Assembly (NCBI GenBank): GCA_963665845.2
Contig: OY762492.1
Location: 3,467,895 to 3,531,894 of the forward strand
DNA from: Candidatus Poribacteria bacterium
GTDB lineage: Bacteria > Poribacteria > WGA-4E > GCA-2687025
Direction of reading: 5' to 3'
Length of the DNA stretch: 64,000 nt
A program made the position numbers and the translations under genes. The stretch's first letter is position 1, and each line of letters starts with the position of its first letter. This document shows, in pieces, positions 3,842 to 64,000 of this stretch. The notes under the pieces were generated by a model that did no database searches, was not told where the DNA came from, and was given only the letters and a program-made list of their open reading frames with translations.

Positions 3842-4083
3842 GGCAGTCTCTATAGGCGATGGTCTTGATTTTAGAGAGTCGTTTTGGAATGCGGAGGCTG
3901 TCTGGGAAAACTCTGGATTCCCGCTTACGCGGGAATGACGAATAGCCCAATAACAGCGGTTGGGGCGCGGTTTCTGGACTCCCCCCTTGAAAAGGGGGGC
4001 TGGGGGGTTTTAGTTCCGTGCGCGGAATCACGATTAGCATAACTCAAACGGGATTTTCGTCGTCATCGCCTGTAGAGACTGCC
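3842..4083. mobile_element. MITE with IS1-type terminal inverted repeats (type I), flanked by the 8-bp direct repeat GCCTGACC
   Basis: The ends are GGCAGTCTCTATAGGCGATGG (3842-) and CATCGCCTGTAGAGACTGCC (-4083), which are inverted copies of each other and similar to the ends of the IS1 element at 39704-40528. GCCTGACC occurs at both 3834-3841 and 4084-4091. The element carries one ATTCCC-N8-GGGAAT hairpin (3917-3936) and one CCCCCCTTGAAAAGGGGGG hairpin (about 3974-4012). Confidence 0.75.
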
Positions 4084-9740: not shown

Positions 9741-9982
9741 CTGACCTCTGAATGATCGCTCTATTCATGGGAAAAAGACCCCGCTAACCAAACCGTCCCC
9801 CGCTTCCGCGAGGACATGCATTCCCGCGCAAGCGGGAATCCAGAGTGCCGACAGAAACCGTCCGCGTTTACCCCAAGCGTCCATCTTACACGCCGTCATT
9901 CCCGCGCAAGCGGGAATCTTAGGCGTCGCAGACGCCGTCCATATCGCGTCTCCGATCAACATCATCGTATGAGCGTACTGCC
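9741..9982. repeat. Mosaic repeat block: truncated type II TIR, two ATTCCC-N8-GGGAAT hairpins and a solo IS1-type inverted repeat
   Basis: CTGACCTC fused to TGAATGATCGCTCTATTCATGGGAAAAAG (9741-). Hairpins ATTCCCGCGCAAGCGGGAAT at 9820-9839 and 9898-9917. CATCATCGTATGAGCGTACTGCC at 9957-9982. Confidence 0.7.
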
Positions 9983-10154: not shown

Positions 10155-13100
10155 GTGACGTACCCCCCCCCCCCCCCCCCCCCCCCCCGCGCTTGGTCCG
10201 CTGCTCTAGCGGCGGCGCTTCTCTGCGCATGGCTCGTTGCTGAAAACAGCAGCGCGCAACAGGTCCTGACAGGGCATACGGATGATGTCAGGTCCGTGGC
10301 GTATTCGCCGGACGGTCAGACGATCGCCAGCGGCAGCGCCGACGGCACAATCCGCATCTGGAATCCAGCGACGGGCGCGCATGTCCGAACGCTGGAAGAA
10401 AACGAAACCAGAGTTTTCGCTGTGGGCTATTCGCCGGACGGTCAGACGATCGCCAGCGGAAACTTCTACAACACGATAAGCGTCTGGAACGCTCAAACAG
10501 GCGCGCATCTCAAAACCCTGGAAGAGCGCGTGAACGGCGCGAGCGTCTGTAGAGTAGGCGACGTCCTACAGCCCGGAGACAGCTGCTATTATCCGGGAAC
10601 TGACATTGTGATTCGCGCTGAGGGCGGAAGCCTTATCATTGGAGGCGCATCCTTCTCTGGGGCAACCATAAATCTCCAGGGCGTTACCATCGGCGGCGTA
10701 CGCATCTCCATTACTGCCGTACGCGACGGAAATTCTTATAGAATTTCCGGAATTGCGAGCGCGTCCGCTGTCTACTCGGTGTCGTATTCGCCAGACGGAA
10801 CGCGAATTGTCAGCGGCGGCGGCGGCGGCAGCGGCGACGACACGATTCGGATCTGGAACGCCGAGACGGGCGAACTCATACGAACGCTTGAAGGGCATAC
10901 GGGTATTGTCTGGTCTGTGGCGTATTCACCGGACGGTCAGATGATCGCCAGCGGCAGCTGGGACGACATGATTCGGATCTGGAACGCCAACACGGGCGAA
11001 CTCATACGAACGCTTGAAGGGCATACAGATAATGTCTATTCTGTGATGTATTCACCGGACGGTCAGACGATCGCCAGCGGCAGCGCCGACGACACGATTC
11101 GGATCTGGAACGCCAACACGGGAGCGCACATACGAACCCTCCAAGGACATACGAATACAGTCCTTTCTGTCCTTTCTGTGGCATATTCGCCGGATGGTCA
11201 AACGATCGCCAGCGGCAGCGCCGACGACACGATTCGGATCTGGAACGCCAACACGGGAGCGCATCTACGAACCCTCCAGGGACATACGGATGTAGTCCTG
11301 TCCGTGGCCTATTCACCGGACGGTCAGACGATCGCCAGCGGCAGCTGGGACGACACGATCCGCCTCTGGGACATCAGCGACCTCGCCGCTCCTGTAGACC
11401 GCCCAACGGCGACCGTCTCCGGCCCGAGTGAGACGCAAACAGGCGCGTTCGATGTGACCATCGAGTTCAGCTCCGCCGTCACAGGTTTCGAGTCGTCCGA
11501 CATTGTTGTGACGAACGGCTCTGTGACCAATCTTGCCGGCAGCGGCGCATCCTACACGGCAACGATTCAACCGTCCAGCACAGGAGCCGTTACGGTGAGC
11601 GTCCCCGCCAACGCCGCGGGGAACAACACCGCTTCCAACACCTACTCTGTCAACGCTGAAACCGGAGGGCCGCAGGTCCTGACAGGGCATACGGATGATG
11701 TCTTTTCTGTGGCGTATTCTCCGGACGGTCAAACGATCGCCAGCGGCAGCAGGGACGACACGATCCGCATCTGGAACGCCAACACGGGAGCGCACATACG
11801 AACCCTCCAAGGACATACGAATATAGTCCTTTCTGTGGCATATTCGCCGGATGGTCAAACGATCGCCAGCGGCAGCGTCGACGCCACGATTCGGATCTGG
11901 AACGCCAACACGGGAGCGCATCTACGAACCCTCCAGGGACATACGCGTGTAGTCACATCCGTGGCCTATTCACCGAACGGTCAGACGCTTGCCAGCGGCG
12001 GCTTCGACAACACGGTTCGGATTTGGAACGCCAACACGGGAGCGCATCTACGAACCCTCCAGGGACATACGGATCAGGTATGGTCCGTGGCATATTCACC
12101 GGACAGTCAGATGATCGCCAGCGGCAGCGCCGACGCCACGATTCGGATCTGGAACGCCAACACGGGCGAACTCATACGAACGCTTGAAGGGCATACAGAT
12201 TATGTCTATTCTGTGATGTATTCACCGGACGGTCAGACGATCGCCAGCGGCAGCGTCGACGCCACGATTCGGATCTGGAACGCCAACACGGGAGCGCACA
12301 TACGAACCCTCCAAGGACATACGAATACAGTCCTTTCTGTGGCATATTCGCCGGATGGTCAAACGATCGCCAGCGGCAGCTGGGACGACATGATTCGGAT
12401 CTGGAACGCCAACACGGGAGCGCATCTACGAACCCTCCAGGGACATACGGATGGAGTCCTTTCTGTGGCGTATTCGCCGGATGGTCAGACGATCGCCAGC
12501 GGCAGTTACGACGATACGATACGCATCTGGGACATCAGCGACCTCGCCGCTCCTGTAGACGGCCCAACGGCGACCGTCTCCGGCCCGAGCGAGACGCAGA
12601 CAGGCGCGTTCGATGTGACCATCGAGTTCAGCTCCGCCGTCACAGGTTTCGAGTCGTCCGACATCGCTGTGACGAACGGCTCTGTGACCAATCTTGCCGG
12701 CAGCGGCGCAAGCTACACGGCGACGATTCAGCCGTCCAGCTTCGGAGCCTTTACCGTTACGGTGAGCGTTCCCGCCAACGCCGCGGGCAACAGAGCCTCC
12801 AACACCTACACGGTCAACGTTGAAATCGGAGCGCTGCGGGTCCTGACAGGACATACGGACCCGGTCTGGTCTGTGGCGTATTCGCCGGACGGTCAGACGA
12901 TCGCCAGCGGAAGCTCGGACGACACGATACGCATCTGGAACGCCAACACAGGGGAGCCTCTCAGAACCCTCCAGGGACATACGAGTACTGTCAGGTCTGT
13001 GGCGTATTCACCGGACGGTCAGTCGCTCGCCAGCGGCAGCTACGACAACACGATACGCATCTGGAACGCCAACACTGGCGCGCATCTACGAACCCTCCAG

Positions 13101-15491
13101 GGACATACGAATTGGGTCAGGTCTGTGGCATATTCTCCGGACGGTCTGACGATCGCCAGCGGCAGCAACGACAACACGGTTCGGATCTGGAACGCCAACA
13201 CTGGCGCGCATCTACGAACCCTCCAGGGACATACGGGTCAGGTCTGGTCCGTGGCGTATTCACCGGATGGTCAGACGATCGCCAGCGGCAGCGGCAGCGT
13301 CGACAACACGATACGCATCTGGGACGCGAACACGGGAGAGCATCTCCGAACCCTCCGAGGGCAGTCTTGGGTCACCTCTGTGGCATATTCGCCGGACGGT
13401 CAGACGCTCGCCAGCGGCAGCAGAGACCAAGCAAATCCAATTCGGGTCTGGGACGCGAACACGGGAGCGCATCTACGAACCCTCCATGGACATACGAATC
13501 CAATCCTTTCTGTAGCGTATTCACCTGACGGTCAGACGATCGCCAGCGGCAGCGGCGACGACACAATCCGCATCTGGAACGCCAACACAGGGGCGCATCT
13601 ACGAACCCTCCAGGGACATACGGGTACGGTATGGTCCGTGGCGTATTCGCCGGATGGTCAGACGATCGCCAGCGGCAGCTGGGATGAGACGATTCGGATC
13701 TGGGACATCAGCGACCTCGCCGCTCCTGTAGACCGCCCAACGGCGACCGTCTCCGGCCCGAGTGAGACGCAGACAGGCGCGTTCGATGTGACCATCGAGT
13801 TCAGCTCCGCCGTCACAGGTTTCGAGTCGTCCGACATTATTGTGACGAACGGCTCTGTGACCAATCTTGCCGGCAGCGGCGCAAGCTACACGGCAACGAT
13901 TCAACCGACAGGCGATGGCGCTGTTACGGTGAGCGTCCCCGCCAACGCCGCGGGCAACAACACCGCCTCTGACGCCTACTCTGTCAACTACGAACCGCCT
14001 TTGTTTGCGCATACGGGCGGCATTTTAGCGGCGGCGTATTCATCTGACGGAACCCGCATCGCCACCGCCTCCGCGGACGATACGGCGCTCATCTGGGATG
14101 CCGACGCGGAAACGCCGCTCCTTGAACTGACGGAGCATACGGTTGATGTCCGCTCCGCCGCCTTTTCGCCGGACGGAACCATGCTCGCCACCGGCAGCGC
14201 CGACGACACGATACGCCTCTGGAACGCTGAAACGGGCGCGCATATTCGAACGCTGGCGGGACACACGGGCGACGTCTATGCGCTAGACTATTCGCCGGAC
14301 GGCGCGACCATCGTCAGCGCAAGCGGCGACCGTACAGTTCGGCTCTGGAACGCCGAAACCGGGGAGCTTGTCAAGACGATGACGCAGCATGCGGGGGTTG
14401 TTCGGACAGCCGTCTTCTCTCCTGACGGAACGCTCATCGCCAGCGGCGGCGCCGACCGTACCGTGCGCCTCTGGAACGCGCAAACCGGCAAGCTTCTCTC
14501 CACGCTGAAAGAGCATGGGCGGACGATCTACTCGGTCGCCTTTTCACCCGACGGAACGGTTTTGGCAAGCGGCAGCGCCGACAAAACGATTCGTTTTTGG
14601 GATGTTTCGTCGCAGTCGCTTCTCCATACCCGTACGGTGGGCGGGTCTGCGGGTCTCGTGTTTTCGGTCGCCTTTTCGCCGGACGGTTCCACGCTCGCTT
14701 CCGGGAACGAGGATGGGACCGTCCATCTCTGGGCGTCCGGAAACGGCCGGCATAAAGAGACGCTAGAGGGACATACGGGAACCGTTTACGCGGTCGCCTA
14801 TTCGCCCGACGGTCAAACGCTCATCAGCGGAAGCCGCGACAAGACGCTGCGCTTCTGGTCAATGCCGAAGCCCAATCTCGATCTGAACGGCGACGGCGTC
14901 GTGGACGCGGCGGATCTGCAGATGGTCGCCAACAGCTACGGCGGCTCCGATCCGAACGCGGATGTGAACGGGGACGGCGTCGTGGATGTGAACGACGTTC
15001 TGCTGATCGCGGACGCCCTGGCGAACGCGCAGGCGGTCGCGGCGGCTCCGGCGTTGGCGTCGTTGCGGGAGGCGCCGTCCTTTCCGCAGGTGTCCAGCTG
15101 GCTGAACGACGCGAATGGGCTGATTGTCCGCAGCGATTCGGCAAAGCGGGGCATCGCCGTTTTGGAGGAGATGCTTCGGTCATCGCTGCCGGTTGTGTCC
15201 ACCAGCGCGCTTCTGCCGAACTACCCGAACCCGTTCAACCCAGAGACCTGGATCCCGTTTGAGTTGGCGGAAACGTCCCGCGTAAAGTTGACGATCTACA
15301 ACTCATCGGGTCAAACCGTGCGCGTGTTGGAGCTTGGGCAGTTGCCGGCGGGCGCCTACCGCAGCCGCGCCAAAGCCGCCCATTGGGACGGACGGAACAA
15401 TCTGGGCGAACCTGTCGCCAGCGGCATGTATTATGTCCGCATTGAGGCGGGGTCGTTCACGGCGCTGCGGCGCATGGTTGTGCTGAAGTAA
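10155..15491 (+). CDS. Giant secreted WD40-repeat protein with three Ig-like cassettes, dockerin-like repeats and a T9SS-type C-terminal sorting domain
   Basis: Dozens of WD40 blades ([35 protein letters not shown]). Three near-identical cassettes of about 95 aa starting [10 protein letters not shown] at nt 11370, 12531 and 13704. Dockerin/EF-hand-like [13 protein letters not shown]...[14 protein letters not shown]-terminal [19 protein letters not shown]...[10 protein letters not shown]...RMVVLK. The in-frame start as printed is GTG 10155; see the poly-C finding for the start problem. Confidence 0.85.
10163..10188 (+). repeat. Homopolymeric poly-C tract (26 nt) in the 5' end of the giant WD40 gene
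   Basis: Counted directly: an uninterrupted C run from 10163 to 10188. It encodes the Pro8 stretch of the track ORF. Confidence 0.95.
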
Positions 15492-25746: not shown

Positions 25747-27753
25747 ATGGCTGAACGAAGCGAAATTCAGAGCGATCGATTTTTAGCGCATCTTACATCG
25801 CAGAGCATTGTTGCGGACAGTGAATCCATCTTTCAGGGCGGTTTTCAACAACCGCAAATCATGGCGTTTTCAGTAGAATCTAACAGTCCCCTATTCACCT
25901 CGCTCAATGAGGCTGTTGATCAAACACGGACTTCCTCTGATCAATCGAAAGGCTCCGGCGGCGCCGTTGAAGCGCAGCCTAAAGATCGGTCGGCTGCTCT
26001 GAACGAAATTGCAGATCCGAAACTTCGCGGAGCTCTGAATAGAGCGTTGAAATCGCAAGACGAAGCGGACGAAAAAGGCGTCAATAAAAAAACGCGCTAC
26101 AGATTGCTGATGCAAGCAGTCGGGAACTACAGTGACGCTTTGGATTTGATGGCGCGACAGAACGAAGGCGAAAAAGACGTTGCGTTGGAATCGGCTATTC
26201 ATAATGGCATTGGCGTCGCTTACGGGATTATTGGCCGTTCAGATGACGCAATTGACAGATTTGGCAAAGCCATCAAGATTGATCCCGACAATGCGATTGC
26301 CCACTACAATTATGGCGTCGTTTGCATACAGAGCGGGAAGATTGACGCGGACGCATATCATAGCCTGGGCGTCGGTTCCATGTTACGCGGCAACGCCGAC
26401 GAAGGCGTAAAAAATCTCAAAAAAGCGATTGATCTAGGCTCTAAGAACTCTGACACATTTTTGTATTTGGCTACCTATTATACACAAATTGGCGATCTTG
26501 ATCAAACTATAGCCTATCTTAAAAAAGCCGTTAATATTAGTCCAAAAGATGCAAAATTATATCACAGGTTAGGCATTGCGTATGGAGAATCGAAAAATCC
26601 GAACAAAGCAATTGAAAATTTTGAAATAGCCGTCAAAATTAATCCAAATGATGCGGGAATTTACTATAGTCTGGGTGTTGCTTACAGTCTGGTAGGCAAT
26701 CGCAAGAAAGCGATTGAATATGGACATATGTCTATTGATCTCAATCCTGATTTTGCTGACGCTCTCTTTAACCTAGGGAATGAATACATAAGGGAAAGAG
26801 AATTCGATACCGCAATAAAATATCTCAAAAGGGCTATTGAAAAAGGTCCTCGCCGCATAGACGCTTATATGAACCTGAGCTATGCGTATGAGAAAAGCAA
26901 CAGATCTGAGGATGCAATTGAATGTTGCCTTAAGGCGCTTGCGATCAACCCCGAAAACATCGTTGCGCATCATAACCTAGGTATTGCGTATGCGAGAGCC
27001 GACAACCTTGAAGCCGCCCTTGAAAGCAGTCTTCAAGCGATCCGAATGAAACCCGACTTCGCCGCCGCATATATGGGGCGCAGTTTCATCTATCTTATAA
27101 AAAGAGAACAGGACGAGGCAGCAGGTCAGCAGGACGAGGCAGCAGATCAGATGAATGAGGCAGCGGAAGACTTCGCTGTCGCGCTGTCGCTCAATCCAGA
27201 GCGGTATCAGGAGTATGCCGACATATTTGCTGATGTTCTGCGGAAGATCGAAGAAGATGAAGCGCCCTGGAACGAGCTGCGCGCCGCGCTCATCCAGGCG
27301 CAGTCGGACGCGGAGCATGAACAGCCGGAGGGATGGACGACTCTCCTCAATAGCGCGTTGGAGGCGGTCGACAAGCTCGCCCCGCTGCGAAAAGACATAC
27401 GCCGCCTCAACCGCGCGGCGAAATATTTGGCGGTAGAAGAATGCCGCGATGTCCGGACAGAGCTTGGATATGTCCTGAACGAGGCGCTGGATCGATTAGG
27501 CTCTCTAGCGGCGTTTCAGCGCGAGACGGCGCGGCATGCGCTTTCGATGGAAGCGTCGGGAGAAGAAAAAGATGGCTTTGCGGCGGCGCTGCTCCGGCTC
27601 AATCGGTCGCTGGACGCCATAAAGATTGAGGAGGTCAACGATGATTTTCTGAAAATTCGGGCAGATAATTCGATGCAAACCCTCCGCTATCTGCAGACCC
27701 GTATCAAAACGGGCGGGCGAAAGTTCACATGGGAAGAAGCGAATGAGCGTTGA
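25747..27753 (+). CDS. Large TPR-repeat protein with a non-TPR helical C-terminal region
   Basis: About 10 canonical TPR units (AIAHYNYGVV..., AKLYHRLGIAYGESKNPNKAIENFEIAVKINPNDAGIYYSLGVAY..., ADALFNLGNEY...). ATG at 25747 after GGAG. Its G+C is markedly lower than that of the flanking genes. Confidence 0.8.
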   Translation: MAERSEIQSDRFLAHLTSQSIVADSESIFQGGFQQPQIMAFSVESNSPLFTSLNEAVDQTRTSSDQSKGSGGAVEAQPKDRSAALNEIADPKLRGALNRALKSQDEADEKGVNKKTRYRLLMQAVGNYSDALDLMARQNEGEKDVALESAIHNGIGVAYGIIGRSDDAIDRFGKAIKIDPDNAIAHYNYGVVCIQSGKIDADAYHSLGVGSMLRGNADEGVKNLKKAIDLGSKNSDTFLYLATYYTQIGDLDQTIAYLKKAVNISPKDAKLYHRLGIAYGESKNPNKAIENFEIAVKINPNDAGIYYSLGVAYSLVGNRKKAIEYGHMSIDLNPDFADALFNLGNEYIREREFDTAIKYLKRAIEKGPRRIDAYMNLSYAYEKSNRSEDAIECCLKALAINPENIVAHHNLGIAYARADNLEAALESSLQAIRMKPDFAAAYMGRSFIYLIKREQDEAAGQQDEAADQMNEAAEDFAVALSLNPERYQEYADIFADVLRKIEEDEAPWNELRAALIQAQSDAEHEQPEGWTTLLNSALEAVDKLAPLRKDIRRLNRAAKYLAVEECRDVRTELGYVLNEALDRLGSLAAFQRETARHALSMEASGEEKDGFAAALLRLNRSLDAIKIEEVNDDFLKIRADNSMQTLRYLQTRIKTGGRKFTWEEANER

Positions 27754-28207
27754 TGCGTTTATCGATACAAACGTCGTACTATACAAGTATGACCATAAGG
27801 ATGCGTCTAAACAAAGAAAGGCGGACCGTCTCATCAAAAGCGCGGTCGAAAATAAAGACGCGTGCATCAACTATCAGGTCGTTCAGGAGACGCTGGCTGT
27901 TCTGTCGGGCGGAAAATTCAGAGCGCCTCTTAGAGAGCTGGAAGCGGAGCTGCGGGATACGTTGTTGCCGCTCTGGACGGCAAACCCTGCGCAAAATGCG
28001 ACGCCGACCCCAGACCTCTACCGCCGCGCCGCCGCTGTCATGGACAAGAGCGGCTACAGCTTTTATGACAGCGTTGTCATCGCCGGCGCTCTTGAAGCAG
28101 GCTGCAAAACGCTTTACACCGAAGATATGGAGGACGGACATCAACTCGAATCTGTAACGATTGTCAACCCGTTCAAAGAAGAGGAGAACGCGCATTCCAA
28201 ATCCTGA
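27743..28207 (+). CDS. PIN-domain ribonuclease (VapC-like), acidic residues intact
   Basis: MSVDAFIDTNVV (Asp1), VVQETL (Glu), SFYDSVVIAGA (Asp3) and LYTEDMED (Asp4). The start overlaps the TPR gene end by 11 nt. Confidence 0.75.
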   Translation: MSVDAFIDTNVVLYKYDHKDASKQRKADRLIKSAVENKDACINYQVVQETLAVLSGGKFRAPLRELEAELRDTLLPLWTANPAQNATPTPDLYRRAAAVMDKSGYSFYDSVVIAGALEAGCKTLYTEDMEDGHQLESVTIVNPFKEEENAHSKS

Positions 28208-28271
28208 GAATGAAAAGAGCGCTAATCAAGGAGAACCGCCGCCCAAAGACGCGCCGATAAAGATCGAGTAC

Positions 28272-28691
28272 ATGATCGGCCCCGATGTCGTCGCAGCCGC
28301 CTTTGACGATACGAACGGCAGGAGGCGTGGAATAGCGGAACAAATCATACAACGGGCGCTCAGCAACCAAAGCGGATGCGTCAGTTTCCAAGTCGTTCAA
28401 GAAACCCTCAACTGGCTTGACAAGAAACAAACGTTGCATCCAAGAGATCGCAACACTTATATGGAGACCGAGCTGATTCCCCTTTGGACGCAAAATCCTG
28501 TTTGGCAGAACCAGCCGACGCTGGACACATATCTGCGCGCTTTACAGATCCAAGACGCATACCAGCTGCATTTCTACGCTGGACTTCTTGTGAGCGGCGT
28601 CATCGATGCAGGATGCCAAACGCTTTACTCGGGGATGTACGATTCTCGGCAGAAAATCGAGGGAGTGGACATCGTCAACCCGTTCAACTAA
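28272..28691 (+). CDS. Degenerate PIN-domain paralog (predicted catalytically inactive); start uncertain (TTG 28161 to ATG 28272)
   Basis: It aligns with the upstream PIN (FDDTNG, VVQETL, LIPLWTQNP, IDAGCQTLY, VDIVNPF). The third Asp is replaced (HFYAGLL versus SFYDSVV), TEDM is replaced by SGMY, and there is a deletion after DTN. Confidence 0.6.
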   Translation: MIGPDVVAAAFDDTNGRRRGIAEQIIQRALSNQSGCVSFQVVQETLNWLDKKQTLHPRDRNTYMETELIPLWTQNPVWQNQPTLDTYLRALQIQDAYQLHFYAGLLVSGVIDAGCQTLYSGMYDSRQKIEGVDIVNPFN

Positions 28692-28864: not shown

Positions 28865-29998
28865 ATGTCAAAGGCGCGCAGCGAACGCAAACGGCAGGAT
28901 GAGCAATGGATGGCGCGCGCGCTGGAGCTTGCCCAAAGCGCGGCGCGGCGAACCTCCCCCAACCCGATGGTCGGCGCTGTCGTCGTCCAGAACGGGCGCG
29001 CTGTCGGCGAGGGGTTCCATCGAGGCCCTGGACATCCGCACGCCGAAGCGGAAGCGCTGAAACAGGCGCAGGAAAAAGCCGACGGCGCCGCGCTCTATGT
29101 GAACCTAGAACCATGCGCCCATGAAGGGCGAACGCCGCCATGCGCTGATCAGCTGGTCGAATGCGGCGTCGCGCGCGTCGTCTCCGCCATCGAAGACCCT
29201 GACGAGCGGGTGTCGGGGCGCGGACATGCGCGCCTGCGGGCGGCGGGCATACGGGTTGAAATCGGGCTGATGGCGGAAGAAGCGCGCCGCCTCAACGCCC
29301 CGTACCTAAAATGGAAACGGCGCGGCGTCCCGTTCGTCACGCTCAAAATGGCGATGAGCCTAGACGGCAAAACGGCGACCGGGACAGGCGAATCGAAGTG
29401 GATCACCTCGGAGGCGGCGCGCCTGGACGGCAGGCGTCTGCGCGTCTCGCATGACGCGATACTGATCGGAGTCGGTACCGCCCTCGCGGACGATCCGCAT
29501 CTCACCGCCCGCCTCCCCGACAGCGGCGCCGATCAAGACCCGCTCCGCGTTGTCGCGGACACGCATGCGCGCCTCCCGCCGACCGCGCGCATGTTTCAAA
29601 ACCGCGGCGGTAAAACGATCCTCGCCGTCGGCGAGACGGCTCCTGTCAGCCGCGTCCGCGCGTTGGAGTCGGCGGGGGCGGAGGTATGGCGCCTGCCGCT
29701 TTTGGAGGGGCGCGTCTGCCTTGAGTCGCTGCTTCGGCGCCTGGGCGAAGCGGGCGCGCTGAGCGTTCTGGCGGAGGGCGGCTCCGCGCTGCATGGAAGC
29801 CTCGCGCGCGGTCGGCTGGCGGACAGGGTCGCCGCTTACATCGCCCCGATCATCATCGGCGGAGAAGGGCTGCCGGCGGTCGGGGACGCCCAGCTCAACC
29901 GCCTCTCCGACGCCCTGCGCATACGCGACTGGACAACGACCCGCATCCCGCCGGACATACGCATCGACGGGTATATTGAAGAAGCGGACAGCGAATAG
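28865..29998 (+). CDS. ribD: Bifunctional riboflavin biosynthesis deaminase/reductase
   Basis: Deaminase zinc motif HAEAEAL...PCAHEGRTPPC. Reductase half VTLKMAMSLDGK...GGSALHGSL. Confidence 0.9.
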   Translation: MSKARSERKRQDEQWMARALELAQSAARRTSPNPMVGAVVVQNGRAVGEGFHRGPGHPHAEAEALKQAQEKADGAALYVNLEPCAHEGRTPPCADQLVECGVARVVSAIEDPDERVSGRGHARLRAAGIRVEIGLMAEEARRLNAPYLKWKRRGVPFVTLKMAMSLDGKTATGTGESKWITSEAARLDGRRLRVSHDAILIGVGTALADDPHLTARLPDSGADQDPLRVVADTHARLPPTARMFQNRGGKTILAVGETAPVSRVRALESAGAEVWRLPLLEGRVCLESLLRRLGEAGALSVLAEGGSALHGSLARGRLADRVAAYIAPIIIGGEGLPAVGDAQLNRLSDALRIRDWTTTRIPPDIRIDGYIEEADSE

Positions 29999-30029
29999 CG
30001 CGGTTGACGAACCAGAAAGCGTCCGCGCC

Positions 30030-30270
30030 ACAATTCGTCATTCCCGCGCAAGCGGGAATCCAGAGGCGCCGCTGACGACGTCCGCATTCCCCGAAACCGT
30101 CATCCTACCAAACGTCATTCCCGCGCAAGCGGGAATCCAGAGGCGCCGCAGACGGCATCCGCATTCGACGTCATTCCCGCGCAAGCGGGAATCTTAAGGC
30201 ATCGCCGCCGCTCCCGTCCTTTTAAACCCCCCTAACCCCCCTTTCAAGGGGGAATCCAGAGGCGCCGCAT
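30030..30270. repeat. Array of three ATTCCC-N8-GGGAAT hairpin units plus one C/G-rich hairpin (NIME-like mosaic)
   Basis: ATTCCCGCGCAAGCGGGAAT at 30040-30059, 30117-30136 and 30173-30192. Each has the conserved flanks GTC...CCAGAGGCGCCGC. AAACCCCCCTAACCCCCCTTTCAAGGGGGAATCCAGAGG at about 30224-30262. Confidence 0.85.
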
Positions 30271-30297
30271 TCGCCGAAACCGTCATTCTACCCGCTG

Positions 30298-31434
30298 TCA
30301 TTTCTGCACAGCGTCTATCAGCCTGTTGATTTCCTCTTCGTTGTTAAAAAGCGCCGCGGAGACGCGAATCCCATCAATCTCCTCCACATACCGTACGCGG
30401 ATGCGCTCCTGTTCGTACAGCTCCGCCGCAAGCGTCTCGCCTGAAACGCCCTCGACCGAAAAGGAGGTCATCGCGCATGAATGCTCCCATGCGTCAGGCG
30501 TGTGGAGGCGGACATTCGGCGCCGTTTTCAGCCCCTCTTTCAGCATGCCGGTCAACGCGCGCATACGGCGCCATGCGTTCTCAAAACCGACCTGATCCCA
30601 CCATTCAAACAGCGGCTCAAAGCCCGCATAACGCCCGCAGCCGCGCGTTCCGCATTCAAACCGCCGCGCGGAGCGGTCCAGCGTCAGTCTGTCCGCCGCC
30701 TCGTCGTAAATGCCCGAACCCATGCCCACCTGCGTCGGCGTCAGCGCGTCCATCAGCGCGGGGCGTATGCGCAGATAGCCCGTGCCTTTCGGTCCGAGTA
30801 GCCACTTATGCCCGTTGCCCGCGTAGATGTCCGCTTCCTCCGCCGCCTCCTGTATCGGCATTTGCCCCGCCGCCTGCGCGCCGTCGATGAGCGACAGGAC
30901 GCCGCGCTCTCGACAGCGGCGCGCCATCTCGGCGGCGGGCGCCCGCTTGCCCGTGACGCAGCTGACATGGCTGAACGCCGCGAGGCGCGTTTTAGGGGTA
31001 AAGGCGGCTTCGAGAGCGTCCAGCGTTTCTTCAGGCGTGTTGCCAAAACGAAAACGGCGGACCGACACGGCGTTTTCTCCCGCGGAACGCTGCGCCAAAA
31101 ACGCCCATGGAAACAGCAGCGCCGCATGTTCCTCGTCCGAGATCAGTACCTCTCCGCCGCCGCTCCAGTCAAGCCCATGGGCGGCGGCGTTGATGCCTTC
31201 GGTGGCGTTGCGCGTGAAGGCGACCTCGTCCGCGGAGACGCCCAAAAACGCCGCCAGACGCGCCCGCCCCCGTTCAAGCCGTTCAAGAGAGGCGGTCCAC
31301 TCCACCTCTCCGCCCAGTTCAAACGCGCGGACGGACTCCTCCGTCTTCTCGGCGACCGACAGCGGACACAGCCCCGCCGCGCCTACGTTTAAATACGCGC
31401 ACCGTTCTAACAGCGGAAACTCGCCCCGTATCAC
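30298..31434 (-). CDS. Aminotransferase class V-fold PLP-dependent enzyme (cysteine desulfurase/epimerase-like)
   Basis: 378 aa with class V pattern (TRNATEGIN, SHVSCVTG, GNGHKWLLGPKGTGYL carrying the PLP lysine). GTG start overlapping the upstream stop (GTGA). Confidence 0.75.
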   Translation of the reverse strand: MIRGEFPLLERCAYLNVGAAGLCPLSVAEKTEESVRAFELGGEVEWTASLERLERGRARLAAFLGVSADEVAFTRNATEGINAAAHGLDWSGGGEVLISDEEHAALLFPWAFLAQRSAGENAVSVRRFRFGNTPEETLDALEAAFTPKTRLAAFSHVSCVTGKRAPAAEMARRCRERGVLSLIDGAQAAGQMPIQEAAEEADIYAGNGHKWLLGPKGTGYLRIRPALMDALTPTQVGMGSGIYDEAADRLTLDRSARRFECGTRGCGRYAGFEPLFEWWDQVGFENAWRRMRALTGMLKEGLKTAPNVRLHTPDAWEHSCAMTSFSVEGVSGETLAAELYEQERIRVRYVEEIDGIRVSAALFNNEEEINRLIDAVQK

Positions 31435-35973: not shown

Positions 35974-36120
35974 CAGTTTCTATAGGCGATGATGTACGAA
36001 AATCCTGTTTGTGTCGCGCTACTCGTCATTCTACGCGCGGCTAAAATCCCCCCAGCCCCCTTTTCAAGGGGGGAGTCTAGAAATCCCGCGCCCTACCCGT
36101 TGTCATCGGACGGCCGTCAT
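35974..36120. repeat. Left part of a chimeric mosaic element (IS1-type IR, C/G hairpin, first 6 nt of the ATTCCC hairpin unit) interrupted by IS110
   Basis: GGCAGTTTCTATAGGCGATGATG at 35974-. CCCCCCAGCCCCCTTTTCAAGGGGGGAG at about 36041-36082. It ends in ...GGCCGTCATT at 36120, colinear with the reverse complement of the MITE at 3842-4083. Confidence 0.7.
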
Positions 36121-37664
<1,544 letters not shown>

Positions 37665-44721: not shown

Positions 44722-44881
44722 GGCAGTACGCTCATGCGATGGACTTCATTTTGACCTTAAAGCGTTGGCGCCGCTTGTCGTCATTCCCGCCCTTGCGATA
44801 AAACGTGCGGGAATCTAGAGGCGTTTCAGAAGACGTCCGCATTCGCCAGGCGGAATGTCCCAACTAAAGATGTGATGTCGG
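44722..44881. repeat. Chimeric mosaic element (IS1-type IR at the left, type II TIR at the right)
   Basis: GGCAGTACGCTCATGCGATGG at 44722-. Long-loop hairpin CATTCCCGCCCTTGCGATAAAACGTGCGGGAATC. It ends in GGAATGTCCCAACTAAAGATGTGATGTCGG. The layout is the same as 35974-36120 plus 37665-37749, and inverted it matches 9741-9982. Confidence 0.65.
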
Positions 44882-44888
44882 AAGCTTG

Positions 44889-45056
44889 CTGACCTTATGC
44901 TTAAAGTTGGGACATTTGAACCGACGATCGCTCTATTCATGGGAAAAAGGCGCCGCCAACCAGACCGTCATTCCCGCGTAAGCGGGAATCTAGAGGCGCC
45001 GCAGAAGACGTCCGCGTTCGCATGCCGACATGTCCCAACTTAAGACGTAAGGTCAG
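44889..45056 (+). mobile_element. MITE type II, complete 168-bp copy
   Basis: CTGACCTTATGCTTAAAGTTGGGACATTTGAAC...GTCATTCCCGCGTAAGCGGGAATCTAGAGGCGCCGCAGAAGACGTCCGCGTTCGCATGCCGACATGTCCCAACTTAAGACGTAAGGTCAG. The termini are inverted repeats of each other. Confidence 0.8.
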
Positions 45057-45066
45057 AAGCTTGCAG

Positions 45067-45448: not shown

Positions 45449-45500
45449 GCGTTTAGACGCGCCTTGGTTTCGATTCCCCCTTGAAAACAGGAGCGTTCGG

Positions 45501-52322: not shown

Positions 52323-52371
52323 CTTAGACGCCGCAGAAACCTTTCGCGCCCGCCAGACGTCATGTCAAGTA

Positions 52372-52537
52372 TGACCTCACGCCTAAAGTTGGGACATTTG
52401 AACGACCAAAGCCTTTATTCATGGGGAAAAAGCCTCGCAGACCAGATCGTCATTCCCGCGTAAGCGGGAATCCAGAGGCGCCGCAGACGACGTCCGCGTC
52501 CGCCCGCCGGCATGTCCCAACTAAAGACGTAAGGTCT
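52372..52537 (+). mobile_element. MITE type II, complete copy
   Basis: TGACCTCACGCCTAAAGTTGGGACATTTGAAC...GTCATTCCCGCGTAAGCGGGAATCCAGAGG...GGCATGTCCCAACTAAAGACGTAAGGTC. Confidence 0.75.
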
Positions 52538-52630
52538 GATGTCAAGTGTCTTGACACGTGAATCAGCCGATGTTATTGTGTTGGCGCATCGGCAAGAAAG
52601 CTGTTGATTCAAAAGAACCTAGGTTACGGT

Positions 52631-63699: not shown

Positions 63700-63846
63700 G
63701 GGCGAAGCCTTCCGCATTCCGTATCCGCATGAATCATACACTATAGCCCCGCCGGCTGATGTTATATGTTTATGAAATCAGAATAAAAAACGCCCCTGCA
63801 ATGCGCCTCTCTTGTTAACGATGTCCAGAATCGAATGCGAAGTTAT

Positions 63847-64000
63847 CTGACCTCATGCTGAAAGTCGGGACATTTGAACTGACAATCGCTCTATTCACGG
63901 GAAAAGGCGCCGCCAACCAGACCGTCATTCCCGCGTAAGCGGAAATCCAGAGGCGGCGAAGAAAACGTCCGCGTTCGCATGCCGACATGTCCTAACTTAA
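63847..64000 (+). mobile_element. MITE type II copy, truncated by the window end
   Basis: CTGACCTCATGCTGAAAGTCGGGACATTTGAACTGACAATCGCTCTATTCACGGGAAAAGGCGCCGCCAACCAGACCGTCATTCCCGCGTAAGCGGAAATCCAGAGG...GACATGTCCTAACTTAA. Confidence 0.75.

Follow-up and report, generated by a model that had tools for sequence, protein, structure and literature searches.

Hairpin repeats with an ATTCCC-N8-GGGAAT core have been described three times under different names. In Neisseria they are the dRS3 repeats of the mosaic elements called NIMEs (Parkhill 2000; Bentley et al. 2007, PMC1797815), in which hairpin arrays with repeat units of 50-150 nt, interspersed with more than 100 families of RS spacers, vary in length among relatives. 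Filamentous prophages of Neisseria also integrate at dRS3, by means of a recombinase of the DEDD/IS110 type (PMC1797815). In a survey of REP sequences, Di Nocera et al. (2013, PMC3733652) equated dRS3 in Neisseria with the CGTC-1 REP family, in which a CGTC (or TGTC) tag precedes a stem of 8 bp, the first two pairs being A-T, that is closed by a loop of 4 nt and followed by a CCA tail. The members of that family were mostly head-to-head dimers and were distributed over 5 phyla, Poribacteria not being among the hosts.

A function came with the definition of the NTS ("Neisseria Transformation Sequence"), CGTCATTCCCGCGMAVGCGGGAATCYRG, by Chenal et al. (2025, Nat Commun, PMC11893778). As single-stranded DNA, the forward strand forms a stem of 8 bp and a loop of 4 nt in Neisseria, and likewise for a Wolbachia homolog that has its own variant motif. 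SsnA, a small single-domain GIY-YIG nuclease whose residues Tyr6, Tyr17 and Glu64 were mutated in that work, binds the hairpin and cleaves a few nucleotides upstream of it. The C that follows the palindrome is most critical for binding, and the GTC that precedes it for cutting; the RNA form is not bound by the Neisseria enzyme. In Neisseria, cutting by Ssn lowers the recombination of incoming NTS-bearing ssDNA, and symbionts are overrepresented among the genomes that have more than 300 copies (PMC11893778). How NTS repeats multiply is a question left by the published work.

We analyzed a window of 64,000 nucleotides from a Candidatus Poribacteria genome (G000; 3.98 Mb, 59.7% GC) made up of a 3.95-Mb contig (C1), a 12-kb contig (C2) and a 16-kb contig (C3). 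The locus of interest is a mosaic of hairpins between two convergent genes (Table 1). A sequence-only reading had likened this mosaic to the dRS3 repeats and NIMEs of Neisseria in an unrelated host, and both parts of that proposal held: the genome belongs to Poribacteria, and the repeat with its flanks fits the 28-nt NTS, of which the genome holds 174 exact copies, or 384 when one mismatch is allowed. The 20-mer at the center of the repeat is, on sequence grounds, the palindromic core of the NTS hairpin, which also goes by the names dRS3-type repeat, CGTC-1 REP family and Ssn-related motif.

Table 1. Positions of the repeats, mobile elements and flanking genes in the window
Feature	Position	Strand	Remarks
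Whole 291-nt mosaic	30006..30296	.	Gap of convergent ribD and class-V aminotransferase gene
ribD-like gene, diaminohydroxyphosphoribosylaminopyrimidine deaminase/reductase	28865..29998	+	Left flank; named from translation; sister-species copy 91% identical
NTS copy 1, CGTCATTCCCGCGCAAGCGGGAATCCAG	30036..30063	+	Published NTS motif matched exactly; 8-bp stem, GCAA loop
Spacer AGAGGCGCCGC..GACGTCCGC..	30064..30112	+	Common to array units; RS-element analogue; 3' end is a CCGTCAT half-site
NTS copy 2	30113..30140	+	Exact NTS; 77 nt past copy 1
NTS copy 3	30169..30196	+	CTTA-tail subtype; left part of hairpin + module 2 composite
Module 2, C-run/G-run hairpin	30222..30257	-	Minus-strand sequence GATTCCCCCTTGAAAGGGGGGTTAGGGGGGTTT; lineage-specific repeat
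Module 2 right arm, GGGGGAATCCAGAGGCGCCGC	30246..30270	+	AATC tail and downstream flank as in NTS
Class-V aminotransferase/cysteine-desulfurase-like gene	30298..31434	-	Right flank; named from translation; sister-species copy 91% identical
NTS core pair, spacing 78 nt	9820..9917	+	Cores 9820-9839 and 9898-9917
IS110-family IS, splits an NTS	36122..37664	+	CCGTCATT at 36114-36121; CCCGTGTAAGCGGGAATCCAGAGG from 37665
Long-loop hairpin variant ATTCCCGCCCTTGCGATAAAACGTGCGGGAAT	44788..44822	+	Pattern search
Type II MITE, TIR CTGACCTTATGCTTAAAGTTGGGACAT	44881..45057	+	NTS at center, core 44970-44989; more copies at 52363-52539 and 63839-64000

The 20-mer occurs in the focal region as three copies of ATTCCCGCGCAAGCGGGAAT in a single orientation (starting at 30040, 30117 and 30173). 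Folded as ssDNA, the 28-mer yields an 8-bp stem and a 4-nt loop at -9 kcal/mol with a z score of about -5 (-5.1 for copy 1). A pattern search found ATTCCCGCG[C/T]AAGCGGGAAT at all 15 core sites listed in the sequence-only reading and in none of 100 shuffles; the last of these cores lies at 63927-63946 and carries one mismatch (GGAAAT), and those at 3917 and 56843 have the opposite orientation. The flanks had been described as conserved, and genome-wide they are: among 766 oriented copies, CGTC precedes the palindrome in 614 and C directly follows it in 765. These best-conserved flanking positions coincide with the determinants of SsnA activity, namely, the C after the palindrome for binding and the three bases before it for cleavage (PMC11893778). 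An Rfam scan of the window matched zero families.

Confinement of the repeats to the window would, by the reading's own account, have refuted it. They are not so confined: we counted 868 ATTCCC-N8-GGGAAT cores genome-wide, 866 of which are spread along C1, with two on C2 and none on C3. Approximately 95% of the C1 cores (820/866) are intergenic, within a non-coding share that represents 12.5% of the genome. Profile searches with nhmmer retrieved 962 copies of the hairpin and 502 of a second hairpin module (module 2), each ~95% intergenic, and the degenerate Ssn-related motif (SRM) of PMC11893778 had 422 matches in the genome versus ~26 in simulated genomes. The statement that nearly every intergenic gap holds such repeats was too strong, the actual share being ~45% of the gaps of at least 50 nt. 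A hairpin or a module 2 copy was present in 632 of 1447 gaps of that size genome-wide, and at least one hairpin in 563 of all 2204 gaps; the window has 31 gaps, 23 of them at least 50 nt long, and strict copies of one or the other module were present in 11 of either set.

The copies are not uniform. On the sense strand the loop is of the GNRA type, GCAA, GTAA or GAAA, and the 766 oriented copies end mostly in CTTA (347), CCAG (283) or CTAG (119). The strict NTS motif covers neither GTAA loops nor CTTA tails, both of which are frequent in this genome. The copies need not all be good substrates for Ssn, as the CTTA tail found in ~45% of them departs from the published YRG. Long-loop variants had been noticed at three places in the window, and we found them close to those sites; the corresponding form, ATTCCCGC-N10-20-GCGGGAAT, has 86 copies in the genome. 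A sub-family, ATTCCCGT-GAAA-ACGGGAAT, is represented by 44 genome copies, one example being in the flank of the IS110 copy at G000:C1:3698270; its closing pair shows a compensatory change from C-G to T-A, and the GNRA-type loop is kept.

The genome also encodes a candidate for the cognate enzyme. Outside the window, at G000:C1:2298872-2299180, lies a 102-aa GIY-YIG ORF (PF01541, 55 bits) that is 59% identical to a 94-aa SsnA ortholog of N. gonorrhoeae over 92 aa, without gaps and with an E value of 2e-42, the N. gonorrhoeae reference sequences being chromosomes mislabelled within a plasmid collection. The ORF lies within the limits that delineate Ssn homologs in PMC11893778 (E < 1e-10, coverage >75%), and its residues Y7, Y18 and E65 align with the catalytic Y6, Y17 and E64 of the gonococcal protein. 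The gonococcal ORF sits in a 2.7-kb array made up of 16 NTS copies. The Poribacteria gene is likewise surrounded by hairpins, two upstream in the plus and three downstream in the minus orientation, all within 600 nt. This arrangement of ssn between inverted hairpins recurs in the sister species (G001) and in one Gemmatimonadales MAG, whose homolog is 62% identical and whose flanking hairpin is the variant GTCACCCCGGCGAAGGCCGGGGTCCAG. There is one ssn gene in G000; a second GIY-YIG match was rejected as a second Ssn, because it is a 361-aa UvrC-like protein.

The sister species has two ssn copies, at G001:C16:144799-145215 and G001:C32:70107-70412. The syntenic copy is split or frameshifted and located at a contig end, and the other is intact, in a different context, and codes for a protein that is 91% identical. 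The two copies hint that the NTS-ssn-NTS cassette has moved or been duplicated within the genus.

Taken with the repeat counts, these features make it very probable that this Poribacteria genome harbors the known NTS/Ssn system, with one ssn gene and ~900 almost exclusively intergenic NTS copies, the module having probably been acquired and then expanded, and the copies being dispensable for neighboring genes and serving as landing sites for an IS110 element. The resemblance to the system of PMC11893778 extends to the identical 28-nt sequence, including the CGTC head and C tail that give it an orientation, to the NTS-ssn-NTS layout with an Ssn 59% identical, to the hundreds of intergenic copies and to a symbiont host. 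It differs in that the host is a member of Poribacteria, uncultured and represented by a near-complete assembly, that the enzyme is known here from its sequence, and that the copies form 79-nt arrays running head to tail, occur within MITEs and are joined to a second, lineage-specific hairpin. By analogy with Neisseria, the hairpin would form in ssDNA, where the Poribacteria Ssn would bind it and cut just upstream. The role of the enzyme might be to limit or shape the recombination of ssDNA, or else to mobilize the repeats. The copies take three forms, as head-to-tail arrays of 59- or 79-nt units, as composites with module 2 and as cargo at the center of MITEs. ComEC and DprA are both present in the genome. 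These proteins are near-universal and provide little information on natural competence.

The phylogenetic distribution of the module is patchy. Across 41 class-level relatives, a 24-mer of the repeat has 702 copies in G000 and 73 in its sister species; one further genus has 4, and the remaining 38 relatives have none. A clear Ssn homolog together with many NTS copies occurs only in the genus itself among these relatives, one of which (G004, ~61% complete) gave a weak partial Ssn match. The earlier reading had proposed to look for the 20-mer in other phyla; the exact 28-mer is present in more than 12 phyla, in both MAGs and isolates, among the matches listed. This patchiness, and the fact that the protein is 59% identical to an enzyme of betaproteobacteria, speak for a horizontal origin with later expansion. 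The genus thus probably gained the module horizontally, and an approximately tenfold expansion would later have taken place in the G000 species via tandem duplication and block insertion. The Neisseria-like mosaic would then represent neither convergence nor contamination, but a pan-bacterial NTS/Ssn system that was gained by one genus of Poribacteria and expanded there.

One of the genomes that contain the exact 28-mer is Deltaproteobacteria bacterium RHO3_bin_65 (L101, JAPPNF010000086.1). Its RHO3 prefix is shared with that of the sister species, the sponge MAG Candidatus Poribacteria bacterium RHO3_bin_6 of the same genus, and the two apparently come from one sample set. Exchange of the module between co-resident symbionts is possible. 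A literature search found no paper that ties Poribacteria to NTS or dRS3 repeats, which is weak evidence that none exists.

Repeat gain in this sponge-symbiont genome of ~900 copies can be read directly against the sister species. In G001, the ribD and aminotransferase genes are separated by only 14 nt and the 291-nt mosaic is absent. As both genes are kept there, the mosaic is dispensable for both of them, and the comparison identifies it as DNA that, to judge from these two genomes, is recently expanded. The empty site of G001 holds a half-site-like sequence, CCGTCATTTCC. Synteny between the window and contig C3 of G001 is short. We therefore rely on 349 orthologous gaps, drawn from 1.28 Mb of the 3.6-Mb G001 genome, in which NTS copies were present only in G000 in 46 cases, only in G001 in 8 and in both in 13. 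The differences between the two genomes in these gaps correspond to indels of whole blocks. A regular target-site duplication was not found at the filled-versus-empty sites of the two species.

Two filled-versus-empty cases stood out, at G000:C1:189409-189599 and 460714-461077. In the first, the hairpin block is flanked by a 32-nt target duplication. In the second, a 111-nt unit is present in tandem triplicate and takes in the end of the upstream gene with its stop codon.

The spacing between hairpins of the same orientation peaks at 59 and at 76-80 nt, and 145 adjacent pairs have the same orientation versus 6 with opposite orientations. The biggest array comprises ten head-to-tail 79-nt units between convergent genes (C1:2099654-2100440); its units are nearly identical, with GCAA and GTAA loops intermixed. 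One spacer consensus prevails between the hairpins of arrays. These arrays share with NIMEs (PMC1797815) the hairpin core, the length of the repeat unit and a variable array length among relatives, but the Poribacteria arrays that we examined have one dominant spacer and periods of 59 or 79 nt where Neisseria has its many RS families, and their hairpins are uniformly oriented, whereas orientation alternates at the gonococcal ssnA locus examined. Similarly, the repeats share with the CGTC-1 REPs (PMC3733652) the tag, the 8-bp stem with its two A-T pairs, the 4-nt loop, the CCA-type tail and the lack of association with a RAYT gene, but they are arranged head to tail rather than head to head.

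A more far-reaching reading of the system is that NTS-ssn is not domesticated in this lineage but actively propagating as a mobile system, with nicks made by Ssn at CGTCAT seeding the duplication and insertion of repeat blocks. We regard it as rather unlikely. It would be compatible with the two contexts of ssn in G001, with CCGTCATTTCC at the empty site and with the exact 79-nt steps of the arrays. Some growing arrays carry along the end of the neighboring gene. If active propagation did take place, MITEs and IS110 would be exploiting the hairpin landscape, and the CGTC-type repeats would gain the "dedicated enzyme" that the 2013 survey lacked.

The sequence-only reading had favored a different role, in which the repeats shape promoters, terminators and mRNA ends. 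More generally, the hairpins could chiefly be RNA elements, i.e., terminators, 3'-end stabilizers or processing sites that act on the expression of neighboring genes. Some of the data go in that direction: the loop is of the GNRA type on the sense strand, hairpins in co-directional gaps favor the gene strand by 232:128, and their density is highest in convergent gaps (2.2 copies per kb versus 1.4 in co-directional, i.e., tandem, ones). Action at the RNA level has also been proposed for REP-type repeats elsewhere (PMC3733652). However, the hairpin stem is not followed by a T-run, and neither a promoter-like nor a terminator-like consensus was present in 30006-30297. Densities are similar across the types of gaps, and divergent gaps, which have no need of a terminator, carry 1.8 copies per kb. 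Furthermore, the sister species lacks the mosaic at the junction of these two genes, most occupied gaps differ between the two species, and SsnA of Neisseria does not bind the RNA form (PMC11893778). We found no support for the proposed effects on promoters, terminators and mRNA ends, and a primary function in RNA is improbable, although the 232:128 sense bias leaves room for a side effect at the RNA level. A replichore or strand bias was looked for as well, but GC skew is weak and hairpin orientation does not switch consistently.

Instead of an NTS/Ssn system, the hairpins might be mere passengers of IS1-type and type II MITEs, spread by the transposases of these elements only, in which case ssn would be incidental. 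The type II MITE of this genome is bounded by the TIR CTGACCTTA..GTTGGGACAT and has an NTS at a fixed, central position, with one TIR 67 nt ahead of the hairpin and the other beginning 60 nt past the hairpin start; ~130 such TIR pairs were found, as this explanation would have it. Nevertheless, only ~134 of the 766 oriented copies are located within 80 nt of a type II TIR, and the majority either stand alone or belong to tandem arrays or to composites with module 2. In addition, the 28-mer is present in more than 12 phyla among the matches listed, whereas module 2 is in no loci fetched from those phyla, and ssn is bracketed by NTS copies in three phyla. Spread as MITE cargo is a slightly poorer explanation still than an RNA function, and we give it little credence next to the NTS/Ssn system.

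Module 2 is a separate, lineage-specific repeat. It has 414 copies genome-wide by regular expression, and its exact 17-mer occurs 333 times in G000 and 6 times in the sister species; this 17-mer is absent from 11 other relatives and from the loci fetched from other phyla. In 170 cases a hairpin is followed after 55-66 nt by an inverted module 2. The copies pointed out in the window were recovered at 3977, 16762, 21025, 30222, 36042, 54564, 54617, 56943 and 57662, and the half unit at 45459-45492. The modules had also been described as shuffled among several element types, and this is supported, as the hairpin occurs in tandem arrays with a 76-80-nt period, in composites with module 2 and at the center of a TIR-bounded MITE.

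Classical REPs moved by a RAYT transposase (IS200/IS605-type Y1) resemble these repeats in being short, intergenic palindromes of high copy number that assemble into mosaics, but a REP/RAYT pair (REPtron) is excluded by the CGTC rather than GTAG tag and by the absence of a Y1 transposase, with no PF01797 match in the genome when 6 control genomes matched, in line with the reported lack of a link between CGTC repeats and a RAYT gene (PMC3733652).

The NTS copies are a fixed landing site for an IS110-family element. This element of ~1.55-kb (PF01548 + PF02371) has seven copies in the genome that are 89-94% identical, and all seven are inserted in one orientation between the CGTCATT and the CCCGCG of an NTS. 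IS621-type bridge-RNA IS110 elements target REP sequences. The seven Poribacteria copies resemble them in their single position and orientation inside a repeated palindrome, and differ in that the target is an NTS/CGTC-type hairpin and not the E. coli REP. A parallel is also found at dRS3 in Neisseria, where a recombinase of the DEDD/IS110 type uses the hairpin for integration, of a prophage there and of an IS110 element here. A direct link between this element and the recombinases of Neisseria filamentous phages was rejected, as the phage records gave only distant inovirus transposases of ~30% identity. The transposase ORF of the window copy ends in a low-complexity tail rich in Ser, Ala, Asp and Glu (37315-37547) after the conserved domains.

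The classification of the repeat (2013, PMC3733652) and its mechanism (2025, PMC11893778) are known already. New are the Poribacteria host, how far the repeat has expanded compared with a congener, its 79-nt arrays running head to tail, the fusion with a second hairpin that is lineage-specific and the joint use of the repeat by MITEs and IS110. A single hairpin that is at once a putative Ssn site, MITE cargo and an IS110 landing pad renders this genome well suited as a natural example in which to study repeat multiplication.

The repeats also affect annotation. The peptides RHSRASGNPE, VIPAQAGIQ and SFPRKRES had been flagged as recurrent spurious products, and they indeed correspond to three reading frames of one hairpin, all of them within the spurious ORF 29793..30197. 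ORFs that contain these junk peptides should be masked.

Two other features of the window were noted in passing. A very long gene at 10260-14858 contains ~25 tandem 126-nt units that encode WD40 repeats (...IRIWN), adjacent units being 60-90% identical in DNA. Directly upstream of ribD, at 27743-28691, two neighboring genes code for paralogous small proteins with similar C-terminal halves (...QVVQETL...YD..I..A...GC.TLY...), possibly PIN-like toxin-type domains.
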